64,000 bases of DNA from an uncultured Anaerolineaceae bacterium. Lineage in GTDB: Bacteria > Chloroflexota > Limnocylindria > Limnocylindrales > CSP1-4. Every line of letters begins with the position of its first letter. The first letter of the stretch is position 1. The DNA lies in assembly GCA_964626755.1 (NCBI GenBank), contig CAZVGO010000050.1:203960-267959 (forward strand). Reading direction: 5' to 3'. Positions 8,874 to 38,447 of the stretch are shown here, one piece after another. The translations under genes were made by a program, and so were the position numbers. The notes beneath the pieces are model-generated. The model was not told the origin of the DNA. It did no database searches and saw only the letters and a list, made by a program, of their open reading frames with translations.

Positions 8874-8948
8874 CGCGGGGTGGAGCAGCGGCAGCTCGTC
8901 GGGCTCATAACCCGAAGGTCGGAGGTTCGAATCCTTCCCCCGCAACCA
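8874..8948 (+). tRNA. Initiator tRNA-fMet (anticodon CAT)
   Basis: Cloverleaf readable by eye: acceptor CGCGGGG/CCCCGCA with a C1:A72 mismatch, D-arm GAGC, anticodon stem with three consecutive G-C pairs (GGGCTCATAACCC), T-arm GGAGGTTCGAATCC, and an encoded CCA. These are the hallmarks of a bacterial initiator tRNA. Confidence 0.9.
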
Positions 8949-9746: not shown

Positions 9747-10726
9747 TCGTGGCTCCGGGCGACGTCGCGGTCGCCGGTAAGCTCGAGGTAACGGTCCTCC
9801 AGCCCGGCACCGGCTCGCAGCTCCGCGATCAGCGTATGGTGCTCGCCCGCCCACGCGGCCACCGCGGCGACGAGCGCGGGATCCGGGACCACGCCGGTGA
9901 TGACGACCGCCTCGCCGCTGCCGGTGTCCGCCGTGACCGAGAGCCTCGGCCAGCGGGCGGCAAGCGCGCCCTGGAGGACAGACGAGTCGATCGACCTGTC
10001 GAACCGGATCCGGAGCAGCGCCCGTCCGCTCGCCGCGACCTCGGCCGGCGTACCGAGCGCGACGATCCGGCCGCGGTGGAGGATCGCCACGCGGTCGGCG
10101 AGCCGCTCGACGTCGACGAGGTCGTGCGTGGTCAGCAGGACGGACACGCCGTCGTCCCTCAGCCCGCGGACCAGCTCCCGGGTGACCGCGCGCGCCGCCG
10201 GATCCATGCCCGCGGTCGGCTCGTCGAGGATGGCGAGCTCGGGCCGCCCCACGAGCGCCAGCGCGAGGCCGAGTCGCTGCCGCTCGCCGCCGGACAGGCG
10301 ACGGACCGGGGTCCGGGCGGCGACCCGCAGGCCGACGAGGTTGAGGAGCTCCTCCGGGTCGCGCGGATCCGCATGGAGCCGGGCGAACAACTGGAGCAGC
10401 TCGCGCGGTTTGGCGCGCGGGTCGAGACCGCCGCCCTGGAGCATGAGGCCCACCCGGGCGCGCAACACGCGGCCGCCGCGAGCCGGATCAGTGCCGAGGA
10501 CCGACACCGTCCCGCCGTCGGCCCGCCGGTAACCCTCGAGGATCTCGACGGTCGTCGTCTTGCCGGCGCCGTTCGGGCCGAGAAGCGCAAAGACCTCGCC
10601 GGCGGGGACCTGGAATGACACCCCATCCAGCACCGTTTGCTCGCCGTACCGCTTGACGAGCCCGTCGACCTTCACGGCCGGGCCGGACGTCGCCCTCGGC
10701 TCGGCCGGGCGGACCGCGGCCGTCAC
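9743..10726 (-). CDS. ABC transporter ATP-binding protein (partner of ABC-2 permease)
   Basis: Walker A GPNGAGKTT, signature LSGGERQRL, Walker B ILDEPTAGMD, H-loop. GTG start overlaps the tlpA stop (GTGA). Confidence 0.85.
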   Translation of the reverse strand: MTAAVRPAEPRATSGPAVKVDGLVKRYGEQTVLDGVSFQVPAGEVFALLGPNGAGKTTTVEILEGYRRADGGTVSVLGTDPARGGRVLRARVGLMLQGGGLDPRAKPRELLQLFARLHADPRDPEELLNLVGLRVAARTPVRRLSGGERQRLGLALALVGRPELAILDEPTAGMDPAARAVTRELVRGLRDDGVSVLLTTHDLVDVERLADRVAILHRGRIVALGTPAEVAASGRALLRIRFDRSIDSSVLQGALAARWPRLSVTADTGSGEAVVITGVVPDPALVAAVAAWAGEHHTLIAELRAGAGLEDRYLELTGDRDVARSHE

Positions 10727-11259
10727 GGCACGATCGTCGCGTACTGGCGCTCGAACACGGCCTCGGTCACCTCGCCGATCTGGATCGTCCGGAGGATCCC
10801 GTCCACGTCGATGAAGTACGTCTGTGGCCGGGCGGCGACCCGGTAGGCGGACCGGATCTTCTCACCTGGATCGATGACCGTTGGCCAGTCCGCCCCGAGG
10901 GCGGCGACGAAGTCGCGGGCCGGTTCCGGTGGGTCCCACATCAGCACGCCGACGATCGCCAGCCCGTCGGCGGCATGCTCCGCGAGCTTCGTCTTGAACA
11001 GCGGGAACTCGTCACGGCACGGGACGCAGCCCGGCCCCCAGAAGTTGACGATCACCGGGCGGCCGCGGAGGTCGGCCAGCCTGAACTCGGCTCCGTCGAG
11101 GGTGACCCCCGCGATGTCCGGGGCAGGTTGATCGCGGGCGATCACCCCTCCGGCGGCAGGGTCGGTCAGCCGGACGATCGCGACGACCAATGCCGTCGCG
11201 GCAACGGCGACGGCGAGAGCGAGGAGGATCGGGCGTCGAAGCGTGATGGCCTTCGTCAC
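10723..11259 (-). CDS. tlpA: TlpA/ResA-like membrane-anchored thiol:disulfide oxidoreductase (thioredoxin fold)
   Basis: N-terminal TM anchor (ILLALAVAVAATALVVAIV), then VIVNFWGPGCVPCRDEFP (CxxC). GTG start overlaps the stop of the upstream cupredoxin gene. Only the last 179 aa of the 499-aa ORF are real. Confidence 0.75.
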   Translation of the reverse strand: MTKAITLRRPILLALAVAVAATALVVAIVRLTDPAAGGVIARDQPAPDIAGVTLDGAEFRLADLRGRPVIVNFWGPGCVPCRDEFPLFKTKLAEHAADGLAIVGVLMWDPPEPARDFVAALGADWPTVIDPGEKIRSAYRVAARPQTYFIDVDGILRTIQIGEVTEAVFERQYATIVP

Positions 11260-12341
11260 CCGCCCGCGGTGAGCGTTCCCGTCATGTTGGCGTGGAACGT
11301 GCAGAAGAAGGTGTACGTTCCCGCCGCCAACGGCGGGACGTCCTCTACGACCTGGCCGGGACCCGTGACGTCCACACCGTTGAAGATGATCCCCGAGTCG
11401 CCCCGGATCGAGACGTCGTGGGGGACCCCGGTGTCCCGGTTGTCGAACGCGATCGTGAACGGCGCATCTGCCGGCGCGGTCACGTCGGCCTTGTCGAACT
11501 CGATGTTCTGCGCGACGAGCACGATGTCCCCCACGAGGGGCGGACCCGACTCGCCGGGCGGCGGACCCGACGCGCCGGGCGGCGGACCCGACGCGCCCGG
11601 TTCCTCGCCACCGACGACGGCCGGCCCGCGGGGTGGCAAGATGCCGAGATCGACGACGACGGCGAACAGCACGAGGACCGCGAAGACCGTCAGGACGCGT
11701 TTCGGCCAACCGGGCGCCGACAGGCTCTCGAGGTGGCCTGTCTGGTCCGCCTCGATCTGCTTGACGTACTCCTGGCGCGCATCGAACAGCCAGCCGACCA
11801 GGGTCGCGATGAGGAACAGGATCCCGACCAGCAGGAGCCAACCGCCGAACACGAGCCCGAAGAAGAAGACCATGAGGGCGAGTGACGCGAGCACGGGCCG
11901 GAACGATGGCCCCGGCAGGTGGACGCCGGGCGGCGGGGTCCCGTGGATGACCGCCGGCAGCCGCTCGGCGTGGACCACCCGATCGTAGTCGGCGAGCGCC
12001 TCGCGACCCCAGTACAGCAGCGAGATCGCGAGCGCCACGATGCCCACCCAGATCCACGAACCCCCGACCACGAGCCCGAAGAGCAGGAGGAACGTGCCGA
12101 TCGACACGAAGATCGGGGCGAATGACGGCCCGGGCAGATGGACGCCCTGCGGCGGAAGGGGAGTGACCCGCCGCTTCCCGCGCCGCGTCGGGCCGGCGGT
12201 CGCGAACTTCCGGATCGTCCACAGGAGCCAGAGCACGACGATCCCGAGGAGCCCGACCGGGAGGAGCGCGATCAACGCACCCCAGTCGGGAATGACGAAT
12301 TGGGAGATGAAGTCGAGGATCGAGTTCCAGATTTCGTTCAC
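11256..12341 (-). CDS. Membrane-anchored type-1 copper (plastocyanin/amicyanin-like) cupredoxin with duplicated N-terminal two-helix module
   Basis: C-terminal HDV...YTFFCTFHANMTG gives a His/Cys/His/Met type-1 Cu ligand set. The N-terminus carries two copies of P-x-GVHLPGPSF-x-P, each followed by two TM helices. A GASGPPPGASGPPPGESGPP linker joins the halves. GTG start. Confidence 0.7.
   Translation of the reverse strand: MNEIWNSILDFISQFVIPDWGALIALLPVGLLGIVVLWLLWTIRKFATAGPTRRGKRRVTPLPPQGVHLPGPSFAPIFVSIGTFLLLFGLVVGGSWIWVGIVALAISLLYWGREALADYDRVVHAERLPAVIHGTPPPGVHLPGPSFRPVLASLALMVFFFGLVFGGWLLLVGILFLIATLVGWLFDARQEYVKQIEADQTGHLESLSAPGWPKRVLTVFAVLVLFAVVVDLGILPPRGPAVVGGEEPGASGPPPGASGPPPGESGPPLVGDIVLVAQNIEFDKADVTAPADAPFTIAFDNRDTGVPHDVSIRGDSGIIFNGVDVTGPGQVVEDVPPLAAGTYTFFCTFHANMTGTLTAGG
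11538..11610 (-). repeat. In-frame tandem repeat (about 3 imperfect units of 24 bp) encoding GASGPPPG linker
   Basis: cggacccgac-tcgccgggcg-gcggacccga-cgcgccgggc-ggcggacccg-acgcgcccgg is directly visible. It lies inside the cupredoxin CDS. Confidence 0.6.
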
Positions 12342-12359: not shown

Positions 12360-12554
12360 TCACTCGTTCGGCGAGCCGGCGATGAGGACGTAGGCCATGA
12401 GTGCCATCGCGATCCCGAGCGCCCCGAGCATCGTCACCCCGGCATAGTCGATGTGCCAGTCGCCCACGTACGGGACGACCCAGTACACGAAGCCGATGAC
12501 GACGAACAGGATCCCGACGAAGATCGCGTTCCGCGGGTGCCGCAGCGGGTGCAT
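12360..12554 (-). CDS. ctaF: Small two-helix membrane protein, putative cytochrome oxidase subunit IV-like
   Basis: 64 aa with two hydrophobic helices, placed between coxC and the cupredoxin gene with a strong GGGGAGA RBS. The assignment rests on position and size only. Confidence 0.45.
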   Translation of the reverse strand: MHPLRHPRNAIFVGILFVVIGFVYWVVPYVGDWHIDYAGVTMLGALGIAMALMAYVLIAGSPNE

Positions 12555-12569: not shown

Positions 12570-13220
12570 CTACAGGATGTAGAGCGTCGAGAAGAGCGCG
12601 ATCCAGACCACGTCGACGAAGTGCCAGTAGATCGACGTCGCCTCGACGGCATCGTGATGGCGGGCGCTGAACTGTCCGGCCATCCCCCGGTAGAGCACCA
12701 CGCCCAGCATGATCACCCCGCCGAAGACGTGGGCGCCATGGAACCCGGTGAGCGTGTAGAAGGTCGTGCCGAACACCCCGTCGGCGAGCCCGAATCCGAG
12801 GGTCGTGTAGTCGTAGGCCTGGCCAAGCAGGAAGACGATCCCGAGGATCAGCGTCACCGCGATGTTCCGGATGAAGCCGGTCCGGTTGTTCTCCCGGATC
12901 GCCCAGATCGCGAACTGGCACGTGAAGGAGCTCAGGACGAGGATCACGGTCAGGCCGAGGGCCAGCCAGGGCTCGGCCTTGAGGTGGTGGAAATGCTCCG
13001 CGAGCTCCTCGGTGACCGCGGGCGGGCCGGGCGGCCAGCTCGCCGCGGTCGCGCGGACGTTGAAGTAGGCGGCAAACAGCCCGGCGAAGAACATGACCTC
13101 GGAGGTGATGAACAGGATCATCCCGAGGACCGGGTTGCTGATTCCGCCCCGCTCGTCGTGGGCGAGGGCCGCGACCGGGCTGTGTTCGTGGATGGCCACG
13201 GCGTGGGCGTCGCCGGTCAT
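12570..13220 (-). CDS. ctaE: Cytochrome c oxidase subunit III
   Basis: FFAGLFAAYF...TGFHGAHVFGG...SIYWHFVDVVW, conserved CoxC motifs. The start is placed at Met of MTGDAHAV, overlapping the ctaD stop (ATGA). Confidence 0.8.
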   Translation of the reverse strand: MTGDAHAVAIHEHSPVAALAHDERGGISNPVLGMILFITSEVMFFAGLFAAYFNVRATAASWPPGPPAVTEELAEHFHHLKAEPWLALGLTVILVLSSFTCQFAIWAIRENNRTGFIRNIAVTLILGIVFLLGQAYDYTTLGFGLADGVFGTTFYTLTGFHGAHVFGGVIMLGVVLYRGMAGQFSARHHDAVEATSIYWHFVDVVWIALFSTLYIL

Positions 13221-14923
13221 GGCTCCTTCCTCGTTCGCCGCGCAGGAGCCGGCTGCGCCGCGGCGGTCGGGTCGGTCGGGACGGGTAGCACAACCCGCGC
13301 GTGGGTTCGGCCGTGGCGCAGGTCGAAGAGCGGACGCTCCGAGCGGATCTCGGGCAGGCGATCGAAGTTGTACGGCGGGGGCGGCGAGGTCGTCGCCCAT
13401 TCGAGCGTGTTGCCCTCCCACGGGTCGTCGCCGGCGATCGCCCCGTTGCGGAGCGAGACGAACACGTTCCACAGGAACGGCACGGTGCTCACCGCGATGA
13501 CGAACCCGCCGATCGTCGCAGCGAGGTTCAGCTCGTTCCAGCCGGCCGTGCCCGCGTAGTCGGCGATGCGCCGGGGCATGCCCTGCAGGCCGAGGACGTG
13601 CATCGGGAAGAACGTCAGGTTGAACCCGATGAGCATCAGCACGAACTGGAGCTTGCCGAGGCCTTCGCTGAGCATCCGGCCGGTCATCTTCGGGAACCAG
13701 TAGTAGATGCCGGCAAAAACGCCGAACACGGAGCCGCCGAACAGCACGTAATGGAGATGGGCGACGACCCAGTACGTGTCATGGAGCGCAAAGTCCACCG
13801 GCACGGCCGCGCTGAATGCCCCGTTGATCCCGCCGATGAGGAACATGGTCAGGAAGCCGAGCGCGAACAGGAGCGGCGTCGACAGGGTCAGCTTGCCGCG
13901 GAACAGGGTGAAGATCCAGTTGAACATCTTCACCCCGGTCGGGACCGCGATGAGGAACGTCATCAGGCTGAAGAACGGCAGGTAGACAGCCCCGGTCGTG
14001 AACATGTGGTGGGCCCACACCGAGAACCCGAGGGCGCCGATCCCGGCGGTCGCGAAGATGAACGCCTTGTAGCCGAACAACGGCTTTCGGGAGAAGACCG
14101 GCAGGATCTCGCTGATCATCCCCATGGCGATCAGGATCATGATGTAGACCGCCGGGTGGGAGTAGAACCAGAAGACGTTCTGCCACAGGACGGCATTGCC
14201 GCCGGTCGCCGGGTCGAAGAAGTGACCGCCGTAGTTCCGGTCGATGAACAGCATGATCAGGGCGCTCGTGAGGACCGGCGTGGCCATCAGTACGAGCACG
14301 CTCGTGACGAGCGCCGTCCAGACGAGGATCGGCATCCGGAAGAGGGTCATGCCGGGCGCCCGCATCTTGAAGATCGTGACGATGAAGTTGACGGCGCCGA
14401 GGATCGAGGCGGTGCCGATGAGCATGAGCCCGACCAGCCAGAGGTCCTGGCCCGGCCCGGTCGAGGCGAGCGGGCGGTCCTGGGCCAGCGGGCTGTACGC
14501 CGTCCAGCCTGTGGACGCAGCCCCGCCGGCGAGGAAGCCCGAGCCCATGAGGATGCCGCCCAGCGGCAGCAGCCAGAACGACAGCGCGTTGATCCGGGGG
14601 AACGCCATGTCCGGCGCCCCGATCTGGAGCGGCACGATGTAGTTCGCGAAGCCGGCCAGGATCGGGATCACGAACAGGAACAGCATGAACGAGGCGTGCA
14701 TCGTGAAGGCCTGGTTGTAGAGGCCCTCATCGGACAGGAACTGCAGCCCCGGCACGGCGAGCTCCGTGCGAACGACCAGCGCGAGGATGCCGCCCAGGAA
14801 GAAGAAGACGAACGAGTTGACGATGTAGAGGATCCCGATCTTCTTGTGATCGGTCGTCGTCAACCACACGTACAGGCCGCTCCGATAGCCGGCGGCGGCG
14901 GGCGTCAGCGCAGTGGTCGCCAT
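13217..14923 (-). CDS. ctaD: Cytochrome c oxidase subunit I (heme-copper oxidase catalytic subunit)
   Basis: 568 aa with 12 TM helices. Contains WFYSHPAVY, HHMFT and the His ligands VAHLHYVLFGG. Confidence 0.9.
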   Translation of the reverse strand: MATTALTPAAAGYRSGLYVWLTTTDHKKIGILYIVNSFVFFFLGGILALVVRTELAVPGLQFLSDEGLYNQAFTMHASFMLFLFVIPILAGFANYIVPLQIGAPDMAFPRINALSFWLLPLGGILMGSGFLAGGAASTGWTAYSPLAQDRPLASTGPGQDLWLVGLMLIGTASILGAVNFIVTIFKMRAPGMTLFRMPILVWTALVTSVLVLMATPVLTSALIMLFIDRNYGGHFFDPATGGNAVLWQNVFWFYSHPAVYIMILIAMGMISEILPVFSRKPLFGYKAFIFATAGIGALGFSVWAHHMFTTGAVYLPFFSLMTFLIAVPTGVKMFNWIFTLFRGKLTLSTPLLFALGFLTMFLIGGINGAFSAAVPVDFALHDTYWVVAHLHYVLFGGSVFGVFAGIYYWFPKMTGRMLSEGLGKLQFVLMLIGFNLTFFPMHVLGLQGMPRRIADYAGTAGWNELNLAATIGGFVIAVSTVPFLWNVFVSLRNGAIAGDDPWEGNTLEWATTSPPPPYNFDRLPEIRSERPLFDLRHGRTHARVVLPVPTDPTAAAQPAPARRTRKEP

Positions 14924-14933
14924 CCGAGCTCCC

Positions 14934-16061
14934 TTACTGGACCGTCAAGATGCCGGTCATCGCCGGGTGGAAGGTGCAGAAGAACGTGTACGTGCCGGCC
15001 GCGAGCGGCGGAACGTTGTCGACGACTCTGGCGGGACCGGTCACATCCTGGCCATTGAACACCAACCCGGTGTCGTTGCGAATCGCGACGTCGTGCTGGA
15101 TCCCGGCGTCCCGGTTGTCGAAGTCGATCGCGAACGGCTCGTCCGCGGGAGCTTCCAGCGCGGCCTTGTCGAACGCGACGGCGGACGCGACAAGGACGAG
15201 GGTAACGGCGGGCGGCGCCGCGCTGCCGGACGGAGCGGGCGTGGCCCGCGCCTTGTCGACCTGCTCCTGGAGCCACGTGTCGAACTCCGCCCCGCCGAGC
15301 GCATGGACCTGGAACGTCATCGTGCGGTGGCCGACGCCGCACAGCTCGGCGCACTGACCGCCGAACGACTGACCGGCCTCGTCCTCGTTCAGGCGGAACT
15401 CGAACCGGTTGACCTGGCCGGGCACGACGTCGCGCTTGTACAGGAAGCGCGGCACGTAGAACGCGTGGATGACGTCCGGGCTCTCGAGCTGGACCTGGAC
15501 GTTTCGCCCGACCGGCACGCTCAGCCCTCCGCCGGGACCCTCCGGGATGACCTGGGTGAACGCCTCCGTGACGCCATCCTCCGCGAGGTAGACGAACTGC
15601 CAGTTGAACTGGCCGGCGATCGCCTTCACTCTCAGGTCCGGCGTCGCCGAGACGGCCTCGACGGTGTTGAGGCTTTGCCACGAGATGTAGAACAGGAATG
15701 CCACGATGATCGTCGGGATGAGCGTCCACGAGATCTCGGCGATGTTGTTGCCGTGGGTCTGGGGCGGCAGCTCGTTGTCGCCCGGCTTGCGCCGGTAGCG
15801 AATGACGCTCCAGACGATGAGCCCCTCGACGAGGAGGAAGATCGCGGCCGCGAACCAGAAGACGATGTCGTAGAGGTTCCGGATCTCCTGCCCCTGCGAG
15901 GTCGCGGCCTTGAGCGGGAACATGCTATCGAGCGCTCTCCGGAGGCCGCCCAGCACGTCAGTCCCGAGGACGACGATCAGCGCGATGAGCGCCAGGGCAG
16001 CGACCACGAGCCCGATCGCGATTGCGCCGGGCGCGGGTCTTGACCGTGGGCGACTCGACAT
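14934..16061 (-). CDS. ctaC: Cytochrome c oxidase subunit II (CuA) fused to a C-terminal type-1 copper cupredoxin domain
   Basis: Two N-terminal TM helices and the CuA site H...CAELCGVGHRTM. After an Ala/Pro linker comes a plastocyanin-like domain ending YTFFCTFHPAMTG. There is no CxxCH heme-c motif. ATG start with an AGGAC RBS. Confidence 0.8.
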   Translation of the reverse strand: MSSRPRSRPAPGAIAIGLVVAALALIALIVVLGTDVLGGLRRALDSMFPLKAATSQGQEIRNLYDIVFWFAAAIFLLVEGLIVWSVIRYRRKPGDNELPPQTHGNNIAEISWTLIPTIIVAFLFYISWQSLNTVEAVSATPDLRVKAIAGQFNWQFVYLAEDGVTEAFTQVIPEGPGGGLSVPVGRNVQVQLESPDVIHAFYVPRFLYKRDVVPGQVNRFEFRLNEDEAGQSFGGQCAELCGVGHRTMTFQVHALGGAEFDTWLQEQVDKARATPAPSGSAAPPAVTLVLVASAVAFDKAALEAPADEPFAIDFDNRDAGIQHDVAIRNDTGLVFNGQDVTGPARVVDNVPPLAAGTYTFFCTFHPAMTGILTVQ

Positions 16062-16223
16062 CGGGTGTCCTCGGTGATCTCGGCGCCGCCAGGACCAGGC
16101 GGGCCTCCGGGGAGTTCGTCAGGGCGTCCGGCGGGACGGCCGGACGCGGGCATTCTACCCGGACGGCGTGGCCGGCGCGCGCGTCGGCCGGTGATCGGAC
16201 TCACACAGCGGGTTCGGGAGACA

Positions 16224-17270
16224 ATGCGGCCGATGGCCGTTCTCCGAACCCTCGCCGCGTCCGCGGCCGCAGCCCTGCTGGCGATCGCCTGCAGCGCGCC
16301 GGTTTGGGCCCATGGGACGGCCGACGTCGGGCCACCGGACGCGGCCGCATTCCTGTTCGGCTGGACGTTCGAGCCGCTCGTCGCGATACCGTTGCTCGTG
16401 GCCGCGCTGGCCTGGATCGCGGCGGTCCGGAGGGTGAACGCGGCGCACCCGGCGAACCCGGTGCCGCGCGCGCGGAATGTCGCGTTCCTCGGGGGCCTGT
16501 TCGCGATCGCCGTTGCGTTGCTCTCCGGCATCGAGCGCTACGACACCGTGCTCTTCTCGGTCCACATGGTCCAGCACATCATCCTCACCCTGGTCGCGCC
16601 ACCGCTCATCGCCCTCGGTGCCCCGATTACCCTGCTCCTCCGCCTCGCGCGACCCGAGACGCGGCGGCGGTGGATCCTGCCCGTGCTCCACAGCCGGGTC
16701 GTCCGGGCGCTCTCCTTCCCGGTCGTCGCCTGGGTGCTGTTCGCGGGCGTCATGTGGGCGACCCACTTCTCGGCGGTGTTCGACCGCGCGCTGGAGGACC
16801 CGCTCGTCCACTACGTAGAACACGCGGCATACCTCGGAGCCGGGTTCCTCTTCTGGTGGCCGGCCATCGGCCTCGACCCGACGCCGTGGCGGATGAGCCA
16901 CCCCGTGCGGGCGCTGTACGTGTTCCTCCAGATGCCCCAGAACACGTTCCTCGCGGTCGCGATCCTCTCGGCGACCACCCCGTTGTATGCGCATTACGCG
17001 ACGCTCGCGCGATCGTGGGGCCCGAGCCCGCTCGCGGATCAGCAGGCGGCGGCCGGGATCATGTGGTTCGTGGGCGATCTGCTGTTCCTTGCCGCGATCC
17101 TCGGCCTTGTGGCGGCGTGGATGCGCCACGAGGAGCGCTCCACGGCTATCGCTGACCGGCGGGCGGACACGGCCCGCGCCGGAATGACGGCACGCGAGGC
17201 GCGCCAAGCGGAGCGGCTGGCCGAGGAGCGGGGGAGCGCGGCTTCCCCCAGCGAGCCCCAATCGAGGTAG
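16224..17270 (+). CDS. ctaG: Caa3-type cytochrome oxidase assembly factor CtaG-like polytopic membrane protein
   Basis: Multi-TM protein with conserved His-containing segments (HMVQHIILT, VHYVEHAAY). Divergent from ctaC. The upstream ORF-track extension (from 16065) overlaps the ctaC start and promoter and is rejected. Confidence 0.55.
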   Translation: MRPMAVLRTLAASAAAALLAIACSAPVWAHGTADVGPPDAAAFLFGWTFEPLVAIPLLVAALAWIAAVRRVNAAHPANPVPRARNVAFLGGLFAIAVALLSGIERYDTVLFSVHMVQHIILTLVAPPLIALGAPITLLLRLARPETRRRWILPVLHSRVVRALSFPVVAWVLFAGVMWATHFSAVFDRALEDPLVHYVEHAAYLGAGFLFWWPAIGLDPTPWRMSHPVRALYVFLQMPQNTFLAVAILSATTPLYAHYATLARSWGPSPLADQQAAAGIMWFVGDLLFLAAILGLVAAWMRHEERSTAIADRRADTARAGMTAREARQAERLAEERGSAASPSEPQSR

Positions 17271-31308: not shown

Positions 31309-32490
31309 ATGACCGACACTGCCGCCCGACCGGCGGGCACGCCCGCCGCGAACCAGGCTGGCGCCCGCGTCAACCAGGACGCCTACGCGGAAGCCAAGGA
31401 CTTCCTGCCGCTCAACGGCATCGACCACGTCGAGTTCTGGGTCGGCAACGCCCGGCAGGCCTCGGCGTACTACCGCGCCCTTTGGGGCTTCACCCCGGTT
31501 GCCTTCTCCGGGCTCGAGACCGGCGTCCGGGACCGGGCGAGCTACGTCATGCGCCAGAACGACATCACGTTCGTGTTCACGGCGCCACTCACGCCCGATG
31601 GGGAGATCGCCGAGCACGTCCGCGAGCACGGTGACGGGGTCCACGACATCGCCTTCGCCGTCGACGATGTCGAGTCGGCGTTCCGGGAGACGACGAGTCG
31701 CGGCGCCCATCCCGCCCAGGAGCCGGCCGAGCTCGACGGCGGCGAGGACGGAATCCTCCGCCGCGGTGCCGTCGGCACGTACGGCGAGACGCTCCACTCG
31801 TTCGTCGATCGGCGCGACTACCACGGCGCGTTCGCCCCCGGGTACCGGAAGGTGAAGAAGCCGGCCAGGGCCGCCGGCGGCCTGTCGCTCCTCGAGGTCG
31901 ATCACTGCGTCGGCAACGTGGCCCTCGGCGAGATGAACAAATTCGTTGACTTCTACCGCGACGTGTTCGGGTTCAGCCAGCTCATCCATTACGACGACAA
32001 AGTCATCCACACCGAGTACTCCGCGCTCATGTCGAAGGTCATGACCAACGGCAACGGCCGGATCAAGTTCCCGATCAACGAGCCCGCGACCGCGAAGAAG
32101 AAGAGCCAGATCCAGGAGTACCTCGACTGGTACCGCTCGCCGGGCTGCCAGCACATCGCGCTCCGGACGGAGAAGATCGTCGAGACTGTCGGCCGGCTGC
32201 GCGAGAACGGGGTCGAGTTCCTCGGCCTGCCGCACGAGTATTACGCGACGCTCGCGGACCGGGTGGGCGATGTCGGCGTGCCGATCGATACGCTCGAGGA
32301 GCTCGGGATCGAGGCCGACCGGGACGAGGAGGGCTACCTCCTCCAGATCTTCACGCGCCCCGTCCAGGACCGCCCGACGTTCTTCTTCGAGATCATCGAA
32401 CGGCACGGCTCGCGCGGCTTCGGGGTCGGTAACTTCAAGGCGCTGTTCGAGGCGATCGAGCGGGAGCAGGCGAAGCGCGGGAACCTCTGA
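31309..32490 (+). CDS. hppD: 4-hydroxyphenylpyruvate dioxygenase
   Basis: Two VOC modules, IDHVEFWV, HIALRT, and the C-terminal FFFEIIERHGSRGFGVGNFKALFEAIE signature. Confidence 0.9.
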   Translation: MTDTAARPAGTPAANQAGARVNQDAYAEAKDFLPLNGIDHVEFWVGNARQASAYYRALWGFTPVAFSGLETGVRDRASYVMRQNDITFVFTAPLTPDGEIAEHVREHGDGVHDIAFAVDDVESAFRETTSRGAHPAQEPAELDGGEDGILRRGAVGTYGETLHSFVDRRDYHGAFAPGYRKVKKPARAAGGLSLLEVDHCVGNVALGEMNKFVDFYRDVFGFSQLIHYDDKVIHTEYSALMSKVMTNGNGRIKFPINEPATAKKKSQIQEYLDWYRSPGCQHIALRTEKIVETVGRLRENGVEFLGLPHEYYATLADRVGDVGVPIDTLEELGIEADRDEEGYLLQIFTRPVQDRPTFFFEIIERHGSRGFGVGNFKALFEAIEREQAKRGNL

Positions 32491-32566
32491 GCTCTGTTAC
32501 GGCCGCTTCCTTCGCTAACTCCAAACCCTGTGCCAGTACGCAGGGTGGCGCGGCCACTCTCTCACC

Positions 32567-33040
32567 GTGCATCACGTCACCGACACCCCGGCGCCGGCGC
32601 CTTCACTGAACCGGCTCGCGGCATCGGCTACGACCCACTGCCTCACGGGCTGCGCGATCGGAGAGGTTCTCGGTCTCGTCGTCGCGTCCGCCCTCGGCTG
32701 GCCGGTCGCGGCCTCGATCGCCCTTGCTATCGTCCTGGCGTTCGCCTTCGGGTATTTGCTGACGCTGCGGCCGCTCGTCGTCGGCGGGCTCGCCCTCGGC
32801 GACGCCGCACGCCTCGCGTTTGCCGCCGACACGCTCTCGATCACAGTGATCGAGATCACAGACAACGCGGTGATCCTGGCGGTTCCGGGAGCGATGGACG
32901 CGGGCCTCGAGGCACCACTGTTCTGGGGTGCGCTCGCCTTCTCGTTGCTGATTGCCTGGATCGTGGCGTTCCCCGTAAACCGCTGGCTGATCGCCCGAGG
33001 CCGCGGCCACGCCGTCGTGCATGGCCGCGGCCATCAGTGA
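32567..33040 (+). CDS. Small membrane protein with HCLTGCAIGE motif (DUF4396-like)
   Basis: Four hydrophobic helices and a conserved Cys pair near the N-terminus. The family assignment is from memory. Confidence 0.4.
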   Translation: MHHVTDTPAPAPSLNRLAASATTHCLTGCAIGEVLGLVVASALGWPVAASIALAIVLAFAFGYLLTLRPLVVGGLALGDAARLAFAADTLSITVIEITDNAVILAVPGAMDAGLEAPLFWGALAFSLLIAWIVAFPVNRWLIARGRGHAVVHGRGHQ

Positions 33041-33058
33041 GCCGGTCCCCGGGCGCGG

Positions 33059-33874
33059 CTATTGAGCCCCGACGAACTCGAGGGTGGCGAGCAGCCGATC
33101 GAGGGACGCAACGGCGGCGTCGAATTTGTCCGGCGTCGCGGCGACCACCACGTTGATGCCCTGTCCCGGGCCCGTCCGGACCTCGACGAATCGCCAGCGC
33201 TCCGGGAACGGCTGCCGATCCCACGAGCCCCCGCTCCAGCGAAATACCCTGTCCGGAGGGCCCGGATCCACGTCCATGTCGATGACGGTTGCCGGGTATC
33301 CTCCGACAGTCGTCGACCGTGGCTGCCCTACCGTGAGGAAGGTCTTGGTCCGCAGCCAGGCCACAAGATCCGCTGGCCAGGGCTCGGGTGGGTCTGCGAC
33401 TCCCGCGCCGGAGACTTGCAACGACGCAATGCTTCCGACACCTCCGACGTACGGATAACTCCACCCGATCCCGTCGTTGACGTCGAAGTCCAAACGGAAG
33501 CCGTCAACGAGCAGGAAGGAAATCGGGACCTCCATCGCCTTGGACGTGTAGACGATCTCCGTCGGCGCCGGTGATGGCGGTGTCGTGTCCGGAACCGGGG
33601 ATGGGGAAGCCGTGGGAGTGCCGATCCCGGAATCGGTCGGTCGGCCGGCAATGGCCAGGGCAACGACCGCAACGAGGATGACGGCTGCCGCGGCGGCAAT
33701 CATGCGCTGCGTGGTGTTCACGTGGATGTCCTTCCAGTTGAGGCGCCACGCGGGTCGCTGAGGCTGTCGCCCGATCCGGTCCGCGACCACGTCGATGACG
33801 CGATCGGGGACCTCCGTCGGACCGTCGGCGAACCAGCGGTCGAGGAGTCGTTCGATGTCGCGATCGGGCTTCAT
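33059..33874 (-). CDS. Anti-sigma factor-like single-pass membrane protein
   Basis: Cytoplasmic N-terminus, a TM helix (MIAAAAAVILVAVVALAIAG), a Pro/Thr-rich linker and an extracytoplasmic domain. Its start overlaps the stop of the ECF sigma gene. Confidence 0.55.
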   Translation of the reverse strand: MKPDRDIERLLDRWFADGPTEVPDRVIDVVADRIGRQPQRPAWRLNWKDIHVNTTQRMIAAAAAVILVAVVALAIAGRPTDSGIGTPTASPSPVPDTTPPSPAPTEIVYTSKAMEVPISFLLVDGFRLDFDVNDGIGWSYPYVGGVGSIASLQVSGAGVADPPEPWPADLVAWLRTKTFLTVGQPRSTTVGGYPATVIDMDVDPGPPDRVFRWSGGSWDRQPFPERWRFVEVRTGPGQGINVVVAATPDKFDAAVASLDRLLATLEFVGAQ

Positions 33875-34497
33875 GCCGAACGACCTCCCGGGATGGCAAC
33901 TCGGGCGTCCGCCTCGAGGGCGGCCCGCATGGCGCGATGGGCGTGATGGAGTCGAGAGCGGGCGGTGCCCGCGGGAATGCCGAGCGTCTCGGCGATCTCG
34001 GCCGGGGCGAGGCCCACGAAGTGATGGAGCACGAGGATGGCCCGCTGTTCGGGCGGGAGCCGCCGGAAGCCACGCTCCAGCTGGTCCCGGTCGGCGATCG
34101 TGAGCAGTTCGTCCGGCGCGGCCGGCCCGTCGACCGGCAGCACGCGGAGGTTCATGACCCGACGTCGCTCGCGCGTCGCCTGGGAGATGCAGACGTTGAC
34201 CAGGAGGCGGTGCAGCCATGCGTCGAATCGGTCCGGATCGCGGAGTCCCTTCAGGTCGCGCCAGGCGATCACCAGTGCGTCCTGGAGGGCATCCTCGGCC
34301 CGATCGGCATCGCGGAGGATCCGCTGTGCGATTGCGAAGAGCCTGTCACTTCGAACGCGGATCAGGTCGACGTATGCCTCCCGATCCCCGTTTCGCGCAG
34401 AGTCGACGAGATCGCGATCCACCTGCTCTGCCCCTCGTGCGCCCAGCGGGGGGCGCCGTCCAACCCTAATGGTGGGACGCCGGCCGGCAGCGTTCAT
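33871..34497 (-). CDS. ECF-type RNA polymerase sigma-70 factor
   Basis: Region 2 (DALQDALVIAWRDL) and region 4 HTH (ILVLHHFVGLAPAEIAETLGIPAGTARSRL). The true start is probably an internal GTG near 34425. Confidence 0.75.
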   Translation of the reverse strand: MNAAGRRPTIRVGRRPPLGARGAEQVDRDLVDSARNGDREAYVDLIRVRSDRLFAIAQRILRDADRAEDALQDALVIAWRDLKGLRDPDRFDAWLHRLLVNVCISQATRERRRVMNLRVLPVDGPAAPDELLTIADRDQLERGFRRLPPEQRAILVLHHFVGLAPAEIAETLGIPAGTARSRLHHAHRAMRAALEADARVAIPGGRSA

Positions 34498-34553
34498 TCA
34501 TTACAAAGAGGGCTGGACCCTGCGGCTAGACTCGCGGCGGGAAGGAGGGTGCG

Positions 34554-35048
34554 ATGGAGTGGTACCCGTGGGTCGTGTTCGTCCACGTGGCGGCGTCATT
34601 CCTGTTCTTCATGGGCCACGGAGCCTCGATGTGGGTGTCCGACCAGGTCCGCCGGGAGCGTGACCCGGTGCGGATCCGGTCGCTGCTCGAGCTGTCCAGC
34701 CGCAGCCTGGGGCTCGTCTACGCATCGCTCGTGGTCCTTCTCGTTGCGGGGATCGCGGCCGGAATCATGGGCGGGCACTTCGGCCGGGGGTGGATCTGGG
34801 CGGCGATCGTCGTCCTCGTCGCTCTCATCGTGCTGATGTACGTGCTCGCGTCGCGCTACTACGGGCGCGTCCGCGAAGCCGTCGGGATCCGCTCGTACCT
34901 GACGCCGAAGGGCGCCCCTGACCCCACGCCGGCCGCCCCACAGGAGCTCGCCGCCCTGCTCGATTCGCGGCGGTCGGACGTCATCGGGCTCGTCGGGATC
35001 CTCGGGCTCCTGGTCATCCTCTGGCTGATGTACTTCAAGCCGTTCTGA
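34554..35048 (+). CDS. Hypothetical 4-TM membrane protein (possibly DUF2269-like)
   Basis: Four hydrophobic helices. Divergent from the sigma factor gene. Confidence 0.4.
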   Translation: MEWYPWVVFVHVAASFLFFMGHGASMWVSDQVRRERDPVRIRSLLELSSRSLGLVYASLVVLLVAGIAAGIMGGHFGRGWIWAAIVVLVALIVLMYVLASRYYGRVREAVGIRSYLTPKGAPDPTPAAPQELAALLDSRRSDVIGLVGILGLLVILWLMYFKPF

Positions 35049-35138
35049 CGGGCACCGAGAAACCGGGGCGCTGATCCGGGCGTATCGATGGGTGTCGCCA
35101 CGCGACACACACCCCCGATTTGCCAGAGGAGATTCACC

Positions 35139-35654
35139 GTGCGCATCCGGTTGTTCCTTCCCATTGTCGCGGCGGTCGCGCTGGCCGCCTGCGCGGGCAC
35201 CGCGGCGTCGCCGTCGGTGGCCGCGCCGACAGTGGCCCCGCCGACTGTGGCCCCGCCGACTGTCGCCCCGCCGACCGAGGCTCCGTCGGCCACCGTCGCC
35301 GCCGGTGCGACCACGGTGATGGTCGCCACATCCGACCTGGGCCAGATCCTCGTCGACGGGCAGGGCCGGACGCTGTACCTCTTCACCCCCGACGAGGCCG
35401 GCACTCCCACCTGCTATGACGACTGCGCCCTCGCGTGGCCGCCGCTCCTCACCGAAGGCGACATCACGGTCGGGGCGGGCCTCGACGACTCCGACTTCAG
35501 CACCGCCACCCGGACCGACGGCGGCGACCAGGTGAAGACCGGCACCTGGCCGCTCTACTACTACGCGGGCGACGAAGCCCCTGGCGATACGAACGGTCAA
35601 GGCCTCCAGGGGATCTGGTACGTCGTCAGCCCGAGCGGTGAGGCCATCCGGTAG
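35139..35654 (+). CDS. Secreted lipoprotein with Y-x-(F/W/Y)-x-x-D repeat family fold and PTVAP tandem repeats
   Basis: Lipobox LAACAG, then (PTVAP)x3, then LYLFTPDE...PLYYYAGDEAPGDTNGQG. GTG start with a GAGGA RBS. Confidence 0.65.
   Translation: MRIRLFLPIVAAVALAACAGTAASPSVAAPTVAPPTVAPPTVAPPTEAPSATVAAGATTVMVATSDLGQILVDGQGRTLYLFTPDEAGTPTCYDDCALAWPPLLTEGDITVGAGLDDSDFSTATRTDGGDQVKTGTWPLYYYAGDEAPGDTNGQGLQGIWYVVSPSGEAIR
35226..35285 (+). repeat. In-frame 15-bp tandem repeat x4 (ccgacWgtSgccccg) encoding PTVAP units
   Basis: Read directly at 35226-35285. Confidence 0.6.
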
Positions 35655-35679
35655 GTCCACTCCCGGACGCGCTTCAATC

Positions 35680-35714
35680 CGGCGCCCCGACGGCGGGGCG
35701 CCGGCCCTTTCTGC
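35680..35714 (+). terminator. Intrinsic terminator (10-bp GC stem ccggcgcccc/ggggcgccgg, then ccctttctg)
   Basis: Lies 25 nt after the lipoprotein stop. Confidence 0.55.
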
Positions 35715-35743
35715 CCGGATCGCCCCGGGGCTAGACTCGGGGC

Positions 35744-36775
35744 GTGAAGATCGCCCATGTCCGCGAGCGGCACGGACCCGCCGGCGCTCCGTGGCGGCTG
35801 GCGGCGGCGCTGGACAACCCGCCGACCAGATGGCTCGATCTCGAGGTCGCCCGGCGGCGGCTCGCCGCGGCGGATCCCGGTCGGACCCACAACAGCGTCC
35901 TGTTCCGCTCGCCGCTCACGACGCTCGACGACCACCTCGCGGCCGGCCTGAGCGTTGAGGCGCTCGCCGAGCTCGTCGACGGATTCGAGCCCCGCGGCGG
36001 ACCGGACGAGGACGACGCCGTCGTCGACGGAGCGGACCTGCGCTTCGGGCCGCCGATCCTCCGGCCGCCGTCGTTCCGCGACTTCTACGCGTTCGAGCGG
36101 CACGTCAAGACGATGTGGGAGCGACGCGGCGGGGAGGTGCCCGAGGCCTGGTATCGCCTGCCGATCTTCTACTTCAGCAATGCATCGGAGATCCGGGGTC
36201 CGGACGAGCCGGTCAACCCACCGCGCGGCTCGGCGGAGCTCGACTTCGAGCTGGAGGTCGCGGCCATCGTCGACACCCCGGCCGCGGACCTGCCGGCCGG
36301 CCGGGCGGAGGAGGCGATCGGCGGCTACACGATCCTCAACGACTGGTCGGCGCGCGACCTCCAGCGCGAGGAGACCGCCGTCCGCCTCGGGCCGGCGAAG
36401 GGCAAGGACTTCGCGTCGACGATCGGGCCGTGGCTCGTCACGCCTGACGAGCTGGCCTCGGCGCGCCGCGGCAAGGGCTACGACCTCGCCATGACGGCCA
36501 CGGTGTGCGGCCCATCGGGCGTGACCGTGGAGGTCAGCCACGGGACATGGGCGGACATCCAGTTCAGCTTCGGCGAGATGCTCGAGCGGGCCTCGGCGGA
36601 TGTCCGCGTCCGGCCGGGCGACCTCGTTGGCAGCGGGACCGTGGGGACCGGCTGCCTTCTCGAGGTGAAGGACTCGACCCTGGGGAGGTGGCTCGAGCCG
36701 GGCGACGAGGTCGTGTTGTCGATCGAGCGGCTCGGCGAGCTGCGGAGCCCGGTCGTCGCGCGGGGGCCCGGATGA
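35744..36775 (+). CDS. fahA: Fumarylacetoacetate hydrolase family protein
   Basis: FAH-fold motifs including PIFYFSN...DFELEVAAIV and YTILNDWSARDLQ. Confidence 0.75.
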   Translation: MKIAHVRERHGPAGAPWRLAAALDNPPTRWLDLEVARRRLAAADPGRTHNSVLFRSPLTTLDDHLAAGLSVEALAELVDGFEPRGGPDEDDAVVDGADLRFGPPILRPPSFRDFYAFERHVKTMWERRGGEVPEAWYRLPIFYFSNASEIRGPDEPVNPPRGSAELDFELEVAAIVDTPAADLPAGRAEEAIGGYTILNDWSARDLQREETAVRLGPAKGKDFASTIGPWLVTPDELASARRGKGYDLAMTATVCGPSGVTVEVSHGTWADIQFSFGEMLERASADVRVRPGDLVGSGTVGTGCLLEVKDSTLGRWLEPGDEVVLSIERLGELRSPVVARGPG

Positions 36776-37890
36776 CCTCAATCACAGGTGCCCGGGTCGT
36801 TCCGCCGGTCATCCCGGCCGGCCTCGACACCCCCTGCCTGGTCGTCTACGTCGACGCGGTCGAGGCGAACGCCCGGCGCCTGGGCGGCGAGCTCGATGCC
36901 CGTGGGGTGCGACTCAGGCCACACGTGAAGACCCACAAGAGCATCCGGCTCGCGCGGATCCAGCTCGAGACCGGCGCGGCCGGTATCACCGTCGGCAACC
37001 TCGGCGAGGCGGAGGTCATGGCGGCGGGGGGGATCGACGACATCTTCGTCGCCTATCCAGTCTGGGCGGAAGGCCCGAAGGCGCCCCGACTGCGTGCGCT
37101 CCACGACGCCGTCCGCCGGTTTGCCGTCGGCGTCGACTCGGTCCCCGGAGCAGAGCGGCTGGCCGTTGCTGTCCGCGGGTCGTCCCGGCGTCTCGACGTG
37201 CTCGTCGAGATCGACCCGGGCAACGGGCGGACGGGCGTCGCCCCGGGTCGCGCGGTGGATGTCGCACTCGCGGCGCAATCCCTCGGTCTCAGGGTCGCCG
37301 GGGTCTTCGCTCACGGCGGCCACGCGTACGGCGGCCGGGACGCGGCCGGCGCGGCTGCCGACGAGGTCGCGACGCTCGGCGCGGCCGCGGCAGCGCTGCG
37401 TCGAGCCGGGCTCGAAACCCCGATCGTGTCCGCCGGCTCGACGCCGACCGCGGTCCTCGCGGCGCGTGGCGAGGTCAATGAGATTCGCGCCGGGACCTAC
37501 CTGCTCGGGGACCGGCAGCAGCTCGCGCTGGGCTCGGCACAAGCAGACAGCCTTGCCCTGTGGGTGGCCGCCACGGTCGTGTCGACCGCCGTCCCCGGCC
37601 AGGTCGTACTCGACGCCGGCGCCAAGAGCCTGACGAAGGACCGCCCGGAATACCTAACGGGCCATGGTCTTCTGCCTGCCTATCCCGACGCGGTCATCGA
37701 TCGACTGTCGGACTACCACGGGGTCGTGCGGATTCCACCCAACACGGCCGCGCCCGGGCTCGGCGACGTCGTCGCGATCCTCCCGAACCACGCCTGCCCG
37801 GTAGTCGACCTGTTCGACTCGTTCGTCGCCGTCCGGGCCGGGGAGATCGTCGGGGTGTGGCCGGTCGACGCCCGCGGACGGAGCGGCTGA
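36772..37890 (+). CDS. Alanine-racemase-fold PLP enzyme, D-serine dehydratase-like / D-threonine aldolase (DSD1) family
   Basis: HVKTHKS with the PLP Lys, an N-terminal TIM-barrel and the characteristic C-terminal domain. Start overlaps the fahA stop (ATGA). The upstream 89 aa of the ORF are rejected. Confidence 0.7.
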   Translation: MTSITGARVVPPVIPAGLDTPCLVVYVDAVEANARRLGGELDARGVRLRPHVKTHKSIRLARIQLETGAAGITVGNLGEAEVMAAGGIDDIFVAYPVWAEGPKAPRLRALHDAVRRFAVGVDSVPGAERLAVAVRGSSRRLDVLVEIDPGNGRTGVAPGRAVDVALAAQSLGLRVAGVFAHGGHAYGGRDAAGAAADEVATLGAAAAALRRAGLETPIVSAGSTPTAVLAARGEVNEIRAGTYLLGDRQQLALGSAQADSLALWVAATVVSTAVPGQVVLDAGAKSLTKDRPEYLTGHGLLPAYPDAVIDRLSDYHGVVRIPPNTAAPGLGDVVAILPNHACPVVDLFDSFVAVRAGEIVGVWPVDARGRSG

Positions 37891-37893
37891 CCC

Positions 37894-38415
37894 GTGGCCG
37901 CCCCGACCCATCCCGCCGCCCTGACGATCGACGCGCTGACCGAGGCCGATTGGCCGGCGGTCCGGCGGATCTTCGAGGAGGGGATTGCCACCGACATCGC
38001 CACGCTCGAGATCGAGGCGCCCGGCTGGCCGGAATGGGACGCCTCGCACCGGAACGGCTGCCGGTTTGTCGCCCGGCGCGGCAGCGAGGTCGTCGGCTGG
38101 ATCGCCCTGAGCGCCCCGCCGCCGCGACGCGTCTATGCCGGCGTCGCCTGGCTGAGCGTCTATGTCGCGGCCGTGGAACGGAATCGTGGCGTCGGGCGGG
38201 CGCTGTTCGATGCGCTCATCCCGGCGTCGGAGGCCGAAGGGCTGTGGACGATCCAGGCCGGGGTCATCGCCGAGAACCTGGCGAGCCTCGCCCTCCACGA
38301 GCGGGCGGGCTTCCGGCGGATCGGCGTCCAGGAGCGGCTCGGGCGGGACCGCGGCGGCCGGTGGCGCGACGTCGTGCTCCTCGAGCGCCGCAGCCGAACC
38401 GTCGGCGGACCGTGA
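37894..38415 (+). CDS. GNAT family N-acetyltransferase
   Basis: VGWIALS...RNRGVGRALFDAL...ENLASLALHERAGF acetyl-CoA binding motifs. GTG start. Confidence 0.75.
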   Translation: MAAPTHPAALTIDALTEADWPAVRRIFEEGIATDIATLEIEAPGWPEWDASHRNGCRFVARRGSEVVGWIALSAPPPRRVYAGVAWLSVYVAAVERNRGVGRALFDALIPASEAEGLWTIQAGVIAENLASLALHERAGFRRIGVQERLGRDRGGRWRDVVLLERRSRTVGGP

Positions 38416-38447
38416 TGCCCGGGTAGGATTGCCCCGGAGGAGCGCCG

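Follow-up and report, generated by a model that had tools for sequence, protein, structure and literature searches.

Tandem subunit III-type hairpins joined to a blue-copper domain in an aa3-like oxidase operon of Limnocylindria

In a 64,000-nucleotide stretch of DNA from an uncultured Anaerolineaceae bacterium of the class Limnocylindria (phylum Chloroflexota; GenBank assembly GCA_964626755.1, contig CAZVGO010000050.1, positions 203,960 to 267,959; the whole stretch is hereafter the window), we analysed a gene that lies inside a cytochrome oxidase operon and encodes a protein of 361 residues, here called the fusion protein. Its predicted membrane part contains, twice in tandem, the two-helix hairpin that begins canonical subunit III, and a flexible tether joins this part to a C-terminal domain with the features of a type-1 (blue) copper protein. 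We consider it probable that the fusion protein is an integral accessory subunit ('subunit III-N/IV') of the A-type (aa3-like) oxidase, and that it tethers a blue-copper electron-entry domain near CuA. What computation establishes here is the identity of the domains, their homologies and conservation, the structure of the operon and the predicted topology.

A duplicated subunit III hairpin and a tethered copper domain

The gene and its parts are arranged as follows, with residue numbers counted along the fusion protein and transmembrane helices numbered TM1 to TM6.

11256..12341, minus strand: whole gene of the six-TM, putative 'subunit III-N/IV'-cupredoxin fusion (open reading frame (ORF) list, translation, homologues)
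12213..12341, minus strand: N-terminal amphipathic helix and TM1 (residues 1-43), with P18-D19-W20 (hydropathy and charge scan; AlphaFold2 helices 2-16 and 20-48; conservation)
11970..12161, minus strand: module 1 (residues 61-124), with the PPQGVHLPGPSFAP motif (12114-12146), the TM2-TM3 hairpin and W111-GRE-x3-DYD (self-alignment, conservation, profile matches to TM1-2 of COX3)
11724..11942, minus strand: module 2 (residues 134-206), with the PPPGVHLPGPSFRP motif (11895-11927), the TM4-TM5 hairpin and GWL-x-DAR-x-EY...ADxTGH (matches to PF12270 and COX3)
11637..11708, minus strand: TM6 (residues 212-235), predicted to run from inside to outside (hydropathy; AlphaFold2 helix 212-231)
11532..11636, minus strand: flexible Pro/Gly/Ser/Ala tether (residues 236-270; Tandem Repeats Finder, predicted local distance difference test (pLDDT), linker comparison)
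11259..11531, minus strand: type-1 copper cupredoxin domain (residues 271-361), with predicted ligands H308, C347, H350 and M353

Translation begins at a GTG and ends at the TGA codon at 11256-11258. The GC content of third codon positions (GC3) is 0.91 in a window of 71% GC, and the exact protein sequence is already on record in NCBI.

The membrane part is organised around an internal repeat. Residues 62-124 and 135-197 are identical at 28 of 63 positions (44%), and their BLOSUM62 local score of 144 lies far above those of 2000 shuffles (mean 28.1, standard deviation 5.6, maximum 61; z = 20.8). This bears out the duplicated HLPGPSF two-helix module that the first-pass annotation, made from the sequence alone, had described. 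Both copies carry PP-x-GVHLPGPSF-x-P, then two hydrophobic helices, and then a tryptophan with an acidic patch (W111-GREALADYD in module 1, W184-LFDARQEY in module 2).

That annotation could place the module in no characterised family, a view that profile searches overturn. The fusion protein scores 34.9 bits (E 1.9e-8) with Pfam family PF12270 (Cyt_c_ox_IV, the actinobacterial CtaF), whose gathering score is 26.9. Two stretches are matched, each at profile positions 83-125 of 132, the C-terminal hairpin of the family; the better one covers residues 145-187, and module 2 alone scores 33.6 bits. Among isolated modules, 25 of 38 match the family (best E 7.6e-10). When a profile of the module was compared with all PDB sequences, it found the first two helices of COX3 in Rhodobacter sphaeroides (1m56_C residues 10-65, E 5.4e-5) and in mouse (7o37_c residues 9-64, E 1.6e-4), and after these several mitochondrial COX3 chains. 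It also matches the equivalent hairpins where they are fused to subunit I, in the Thermus caa3 I+III protein (543-610, E 4e-3) and in Bacillus subtilis QoxB (579-620, E 5e-3).

The alignments agree in detail. The Rhodobacter signature H-I-L-P-P-S-I-W-P and the mouse signature H-M-V-N-P-S-P-W-P line up with H-L-P-G-P-S-F-x-P of the fusion protein, and after the hairpin its G-W-L-x-D-A-R-x-E lines up with W-W-x-D-V-x-x-E of COX3. Module 2 is the better conserved copy and the more similar to COX3 and CtaF, matching residues 9-65 of R. sphaeroides COX3. From the PF12270 match and the profile matches to COX3 TM1-2 it follows that HLPGPSF is this lineage's form of the H-x-x-x-PS-x-W-P signature at the N-terminus of COX3. 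The module therefore belongs with a known family of oxidase subunits, and we reject the earlier suggestion that the motif is a metal- or quinone-binding element: it is the local form of a COX3/CtaF signature that has no known metal, quinone or other cofactor site. An NCBIfam scan of the fusion protein gave nothing near the cutoffs; a weak match to the C-terminal part of QoxB (E 0.022, profile positions 575-630) is, in hindsight, the same COX3-type hairpin. Elsewhere the TM1-2 hairpin of COX3 binds the phospholipids of a V-shaped cleft, which modulate oxygen entry, and in various lineages it has become detached or been joined to other subunits (PMC4013037).

An exhaustive search of 1.84 billion representative sequences with the module profile returned 761 relatives. 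They include a divergent subfamily (P0305, P0311, P0326 and P0312; 372-428 residues) with the same architecture, in which a low-complexity insert of 60-70 residues separates the modules. There module 1 reads HLPGPSLWP or HLPGPSRWP, and module 2 reads HLPGPSPWPF, the canonical COX3 motif, with GWYRDA, GWLRDA or GWFRDA after it. P0305 aligns with positions 4-70 of the Pfam COX3 profile (PF00510) at 19.5 bits, below the cutoff of 23.8.

A hydropathy and charge scan, with which AlphaFold2 agrees, places TM helices at about residues 20-43, 75-92, 95-112, 148-165, 168-186 and 212-235. TM1 precedes module 1 and TM6 separates module 2 from the linker, so the two hairpins are flanked by one helix on either side and the total comes to six. 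TM1 is predicted to run from outside to inside, into a cytoplasmic loop rich in Arg and Lys (residues 44-58). By the positive-inside rule both H-x-PGPS motifs and the acidic loops are predicted to be cytoplasmic, and residues 236-361, including the cupredoxin, to lie outside, on the CuA side. The placement of the C-terminal domain on the outer (P) side follows from the predicted inside-to-outside course of TM6. The AlphaFold2 model has a mean pLDDT of 78.5, with residues 238-265 disordered (pLDDT below 50) and a beta-sandwich at 271-361 modelled at pLDDT 96-98.

The linker is encoded by a tandem repeat, as first proposed; its period is 21 bp, not 24 (2.8 copies, 97% matches, 11539-11597), giving the seven-residue unit GASGPPP, and it does not directly follow module 2, TM6 lying between the two. 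Among orthologues it ranges from 11 to 39 residues and is about 87% Pro, Gly, Ser and Ala. This variable length and composition fit a tether rather than a folded element.

The C-terminal domain is, on the evidence of its sequence, a type-1 (blue) copper domain with the full ligand set, as the first reading of a membrane-anchored cupredoxin had it. Pfam Cupredoxin_1 matches it at 38.5 bits, its cupredoxin beta-sandwich fold is confidently predicted, and none of the 81 orthologues departs from the ligands H308, C347, H350 and M353. Its copper loop, C-T-F-H-A-N-M, has the C-x2-H-x2-M spacing of amicyanin, whose loop is CTPHPFM; orthologues have C-x2-H-x2..4-M. Auracyanin and amicyanin are the nearest solved relatives, so that the comparison with auracyanin, made at the outset, stands for this domain. 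The best single-sequence PDB match is Roseiflexus auracyanin (6kol, E 0.0011; 2aan follows at E 0.12), a marginal similarity, and Foldseek ranks amicyanin first (E 1.9e-7), then auracyanins and plastocyanins, with azurin, CupA and EfeO/FtrB-type cupredoxins also among the structural matches. The Pfam SoxE family has no match in the fusion protein. The heme-c motif CxxCH is absent from the fusion protein, whose single cysteine is C347, and from CtaC, whose cysteines are those of CuA and of its own cupredoxin. One homologue, P0115 (488 residues), carries two tandem cupredoxin domains after the membrane part, each with a full copper ligand set.

A protein search with the fusion protein found at least 1673 homologues, nearly all of them full-length among the matches listed, and 284 relatives came from a scan that took one genome for each GTDB species. 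The best 80 of these 284 all come from metagenome-assembled genomes labelled Chloroflexota, Candidatus Limnocylindria or Limnocylindrales (with a few other Chloroflexota labels); cultured organisms among the best 80 number zero. Conservation was read from an alignment of 81 species-level orthologues (46-86% identity). Invariant in them are H68, P70, P76, H141, P143, P145 and P149, with F147 and R148 nearly so, and the HLPGPSF motif is thus conserved among orthologues, a check that the first-pass annotation had set. Also invariant are W111, E114, W184, L185, D187, E191, G202 and H203, together with P18-D19-W20 at TM1. Both module copies are strongly conserved, and the membrane part as a whole is more conserved than the linker. 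Among the matches listed, automated annotation attaches PF12270 and PF13473 and gives the names 'cytochrome c oxidase subunit 4', 'cupredoxin domain-containing protein' and 'plastocyanin'.

The oxidase operon and its neighbourhood

The fusion gene is the fifth in a tightly packed minus-strand operon, ctaC-ctaD-ctaE-orf64-fusion gene-tlpA, with ctaG transcribed divergently. In 82 related loci from about 80 species-level genomes (tblastn) the gene order is essentially the same everywhere, including tlpA downstream of the fusion gene and the position of ctaG. The other genes of the cluster are these.

14934..16061, minus strand: ctaC, subunit II, with the CuA motif and a C-terminal cupredoxin (Pfam COX2_TM, COX2, Cupredoxin_1)
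13217..14923, minus strand: ctaD, subunit I, 12 TM helices (PF00115, 540.9 bits, residues 28-475)
12570..13220, minus strand: ctaE, a 216-residue five-helix subunit III (Pfam COX3 profile positions 78-255 of 258)
12360..12554, minus strand: orf64, a 64-residue protein with two TM helices (present in 80 of 80 related loci)
10723..11259, minus strand: tlpA, a TlpA-like membrane-anchored thioredoxin (CVPC) with a GTG start (Pfam AhpC-TSA, Redoxin)
16065..17270, plus strand: ctaG, a Caa3_CtaG copper-insertion assembly factor, divergently transcribed (PF09678, 255 bits)

Subunit III is the key neighbour. CtaE is 216 residues long (216-223 in homologues) and matches the COX3 profile at positions 78-255 only, from which we conclude that it is a five-helix subunit III lacking exactly TM1-2. 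About 80 genomes have the fusion gene as the second gene after ctaE. CtaD lacks the C-terminal TM13-14 extension, its C-terminal tail being free of hydrophobic stretches. At the ctaD/ctaE junction (ATGA, 13217-13220) and at the fusion gene/tlpA junction (GTGA, 11256-11259) the start codon of one gene overlaps the stop codon of the other, and gaps of 15-18 nucleotides separate ctaE from orf64 and orf64 from the fusion gene. These junctions are consistent with translational coupling along the operon. A promoter and terminator scan around the operon gave nothing above chance.

CtaC has an intact CuA motif (H199...C-x-E-x-C-x3-H-x2-M) and ends in a type-1 cupredoxin of its own (residues 288-375, 14937-15200; H...C-x2-H-x2-M), which is 66% identical to that of the fusion protein (BLASTP 62/94, E 4e-42). 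The fusion of a cupredoxin to CtaC occurs in nearly all related loci. At one locus (L023:2515-3306) tblastn finds no cupredoxin after the CtaC core, and the cupredoxin of the fusion protein is present; this may be a natural loss or an assembly gap. The two cupredoxins of one genome tend to resemble each other. Their median identity within a genome is 55%, against 48-50% for the same position and 47% across positions between genomes, and the within-genome pair is the more alike in 52 of 67 genomes (11259-11531 against 14937-15200 in the window, and the pairs in 66 related loci). Gene conversion, or co-evolution towards a partner surface that both share, may lie behind this.

The small gene orf64 encodes proteins of 58-73 residues across the related loci (GC3 0.95 in the window). 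Its 2606 database relatives are, among the matches listed, all close relatives and all 'hypothetical', and a Pfam scan of orf64 found no match. A profile of orf64 has, as the second of two PDB matches, a weak one to residues 5-48 of M. tuberculosis CtaF (E 0.097), and a virtual profile of orf64 followed by module 2 aligns collinearly with CtaF residues 9-128, also weakly (E 1.1-1.7). The protein is probably a further, unannotated small subunit of the oxidase. These alignments are suggestive, though unproven as evidence, of orf64 as the counterpart of the N-terminal half of CtaF, in which case orf64 and a module would together make up a split CtaF.

At one related locus (L002:1965-3672, minus strand) the arrangement occurs a second time, in a divergent copy that lies on the opposite strand and adjoins the main ctaE-orf-fusion gene-tlpA cluster. 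This copy is made up of a CtaE-like fragment, a two-module protein and a cupredoxin; upstream of it, in the stretch examined, the one trace of ctaD is a short C-terminal tblastn match, and no ctaC was detected.

Elsewhere in the window, a tRNA-Met (CAT) gene lies at 8874-8948 on the plus strand, in a GC-rich stretch where several long spurious ORFs overlap it. The plus strand at 31309-39671 carries a likely aromatic amino-acid (homogentisate) catabolic cluster: 31309-32490 encodes an HPPD-like dioxygenase, 35744-36775 a fumarylacetoacetate hydrolase and 38448-39671 a homogentisate dioxygenase-like protein. On the same strand, 42610-45530 encodes a two-subunit 2-oxoacid:ferredoxin oxidoreductase. 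Both of these are unrelated to the fusion protein.

A candidate subunit III-N/IV and the alternatives

We infer that the fusion protein is incorporated into the oxidase complex, that its hairpins take up defined positions there and that its copper domain transfers electrons. It would supply the two helices that begin canonical subunit III and that CtaE is missing, in two tandem copies with one extra helix on each side. At least one hairpin may pack beside CtaE and CtaD at the usual TM1-2 site of subunit III. Module 2 is the likelier occupant, because it is the better conserved and more COX3-like copy. A hairpin at this site could help to form the lipid-filled cleft, and the invariant His-Pro motif would then sit at the cytoplasmic face of the membrane near the entrance region of the D-pathway, where the cytoplasmic histidine may contribute. 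In other oxidases, residues of subunit III lie near the D-pathway entrance, and removal of the subunit alters proton uptake and causes suicide inactivation (PMC8361435). On the other face of the membrane, TM6 would bring the chain to the outside, where the 35-residue Pro/Gly/Ser tether would hold the type-1 copper cupredoxin. This domain could serve as a built-in one-electron carrier that delivers to CuA, directly or by way of the paralogous cupredoxin fused to CtaC, and so take the role of the fused cytochrome c domain of caa3 oxidases or of a soluble cytochrome c. With regard to the cytoplasmic face, the N-terminal histidines of R. sphaeroides subunit III are reportedly a proton antenna, which we treat as a lead only.

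Several observations weigh against this proposal. The need for two hairpins has no explanation, and no solved oxidase has an obvious site for a second one. The fusion protein itself has no match to Pfam COX3 (PF00510), its single-sequence match to a solved COX3 is weak (E 0.017), and it matches just the C-terminal third of the PF12270 model. The 30 neighbouring ORFs scanned in the window include no bc complex or alternative complex III, the expected upstream electron donors.

The first-pass annotation had taken the protein for a membrane electron shuttle to the oxidase, comparable to auracyanin or sulfocyanin. Part of this survives: because the gene lies inside the oxidase operon, the most plausible reading is still that the protein helps to feed electrons to the oxidase. 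A free-standing, auracyanin-like shuttle that diffuses in the membrane between the oxidase and a quinol-oxidising complex and is not itself one of the stoichiometric oxidase subunits is unlikely in our judgement, and an integral subunit with a tethered carrier fits better. The long flexible tether of the copper domain and the presence of auracyanins A and B and of Roseiflexus auracyanin among the nearest solved relatives would suit a shuttle, and Chloroflexota are known to use auracyanin as a mobile carrier (PMC10873879). A shuttle would, however, need no more than a single helix or a lipid anchor, whereas this anchor has six helices and includes two copies of the very oxidase element that CtaE lacks. 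Its gene keeps a strictly conserved, tightly coupled place among structural genes, and its membrane part is more strongly conserved than its linker.

A refinement of the proposed subunit role, compatible with it, is that the protein acts as a supercomplex adaptor: one hairpin would complete subunit III, the other would bind a bc-type complex or alternative complex III, and the cupredoxin would shuttle inside an obligate supercomplex. The strong conservation of both modules and a tether length compatible with a short-range swing suit this idea. So do two other systems, the mycobacterial III2IV2 supercomplex, in which contacts between complexes III and IV run through CtaE and CtaF, and the Flavobacterium supercomplex of alternative complex III and aa3 oxidase, in which the contacts are made by a subunit III of five helices, without TM1-2 (PMC8361435). 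The partner complex, however, is encoded neither in the window nor within 6 kb on either side in the related loci examined, and we hold this version to be quite improbable as it stands.

An assembly or protection factor, whose cupredoxin would metallate or stabilise CuA or the CtaC cupredoxin while the membrane part docks to the nascent oxidase, is equally hard to credit: the gene does overlap tlpA and lie near ctaG, both genes for copper-centre maturation, CupA and EfeO/FtrB-type cupredoxins are among its structural matches, and AcoP, a membrane-anchored cupredoxin partner of cytochrome c oxidase, has been proposed to be chaperone-like (PMC10804444), but the invariant His/Cys/His/Met set with C-x2-H-x2-M is the signature of a redox type-1 site such as that of amicyanin rather than of a Cu(I) chaperone, a near-identical domain is a permanent part of CtaC, at the very place where the electron-entry cytochrome c sits in caa3 oxidases, and in subunit III the element to which the membrane modules correspond is structural and permanent.

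Relation to known oxidases and implications

The closest parallel to an accessory subunit of this kind is CtaF (PF12270; M. smegmatis and M. tuberculosis structures 6ADQ, 6HWH, 8HCR), likewise a separate polypeptide that gives the TM1-2 hairpin of subunit III to a five-helix CtaE. In actinobacteria CtaE and CtaF together make up the canonical subunit III, and we propose the same solution for CtaE and the fusion protein. In both cases the gene lies beside ctaE, and the hairpin opens with a matching motif, PHSWWP in CtaF and HLPGPSF-x-P in the fusion protein. Unlike the fusion protein, CtaF has about 139 residues, four TM helices, one such hairpin and no extramembrane domain; the fusion protein has the hairpin twice in tandem, with two further flanking helices and a blue-copper domain attached. 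The full four-helix CtaF architecture in one polypeptide of about 135 residues is therefore not what we find, the fusion protein having 361 residues, six TM helices and a cupredoxin. Canonical seven-helix subunit III (1M56 chain C, bovine and mouse COX3) shares with it the H-x-x-x-P-S-x-W/F-P motif, the hairpin and the W-x-x-D-x-x-x-E loop, and also the cytoplasmic (N-side) position of the motif, as far as the predicted topology holds. What differs is that here the hairpin is detached, encoded downstream of the remaining subunit III, duplicated and joined to other elements.

The caa3 oxidases (Thermus thermophilus 2YEV, Bacillus) have a covalently tethered electron-entry carrier, the role that we propose for the copper domain. 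Thermus caa3 also has a relocated COX3-type hairpin, in that case fused between subunits I and III, and caa3 operons, like this one, include a Caa3_CtaG assembly factor. In contrast to caa3, the carrier would here be a type-1 cupredoxin and not a heme-c protein, there are two per operon (in CtaC and in the fusion protein), and that of the fusion protein hangs from a subunit III/IV-like element, whereas the caa3 carrier hangs from subunit II.

Auracyanin (Chloroflexus, Roseiflexus), sulfocyanin SoxE (in the SoxM complex of Sulfolobus) and AcoP (Acidithiobacillus ferrooxidans) are, as is predicted for the fusion protein, outer-face mononuclear-copper cupredoxins functionally linked to a heme-copper oxidase, and AcoP binds cytochrome c oxidase (PMC10804444). 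They differ from the fusion protein in their anchor, a single helix or a lipid, which is not homologous to any oxidase subunit, and the fusion protein differs from them in its amicyanin-like copper loop, C-x2-H-x2-M.

The building blocks of the arrangement, namely a split subunit III/CtaF hairpin, carriers tethered to an oxidase and blue-copper carriers, were already known. In the searchable literature on Limnocylindria oxidases, fusions of cupredoxins to subunit II or IV and PF12270, we found no description of this fusion; the tandem N-terminal hairpin of subunit III, its use to anchor a domain of the blue-copper type, the partnership with a subunit II that bears a cupredoxin too and the class-wide conservation are likewise undescribed there. 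Database labels can now be corrected, as 'plastocyanin' and 'cupredoxin domain-containing protein' omit the oxidase-subunit part, and 'cytochrome c oxidase subunit 4' omits the copper domain. The 64-residue neighbour, orf64, stands in the databases with no annotation at all.

The arrangement is conserved in at least 284 species-level genomes of an abundant, uncultured class of soil and freshwater bacteria, and it is apparently a cytochrome-c-independent wiring of an aa3 oxidase. One can speculate further, and tentatively, that Limnocylindria have a 'cupredoxin-aa3' oxidase that needs no cytochrome c, in which two type-1 copper domains relay electrons into CuA, the second hairpin docks a quinol-oxidising partner and the cupredoxin swings within an obligate supercomplex. 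An oxidase of this kind, if real, would stand as the all-copper bacterial counterpart to the bcc-aa3 arrangement of actinobacteria. Should electrons enter through the copper domains, aerobic respiration in this class would use copper instead of heme c at its final step, which would bear on the metal economy of these bacteria and on the evolution of the modular periphery of heme-copper oxidases.

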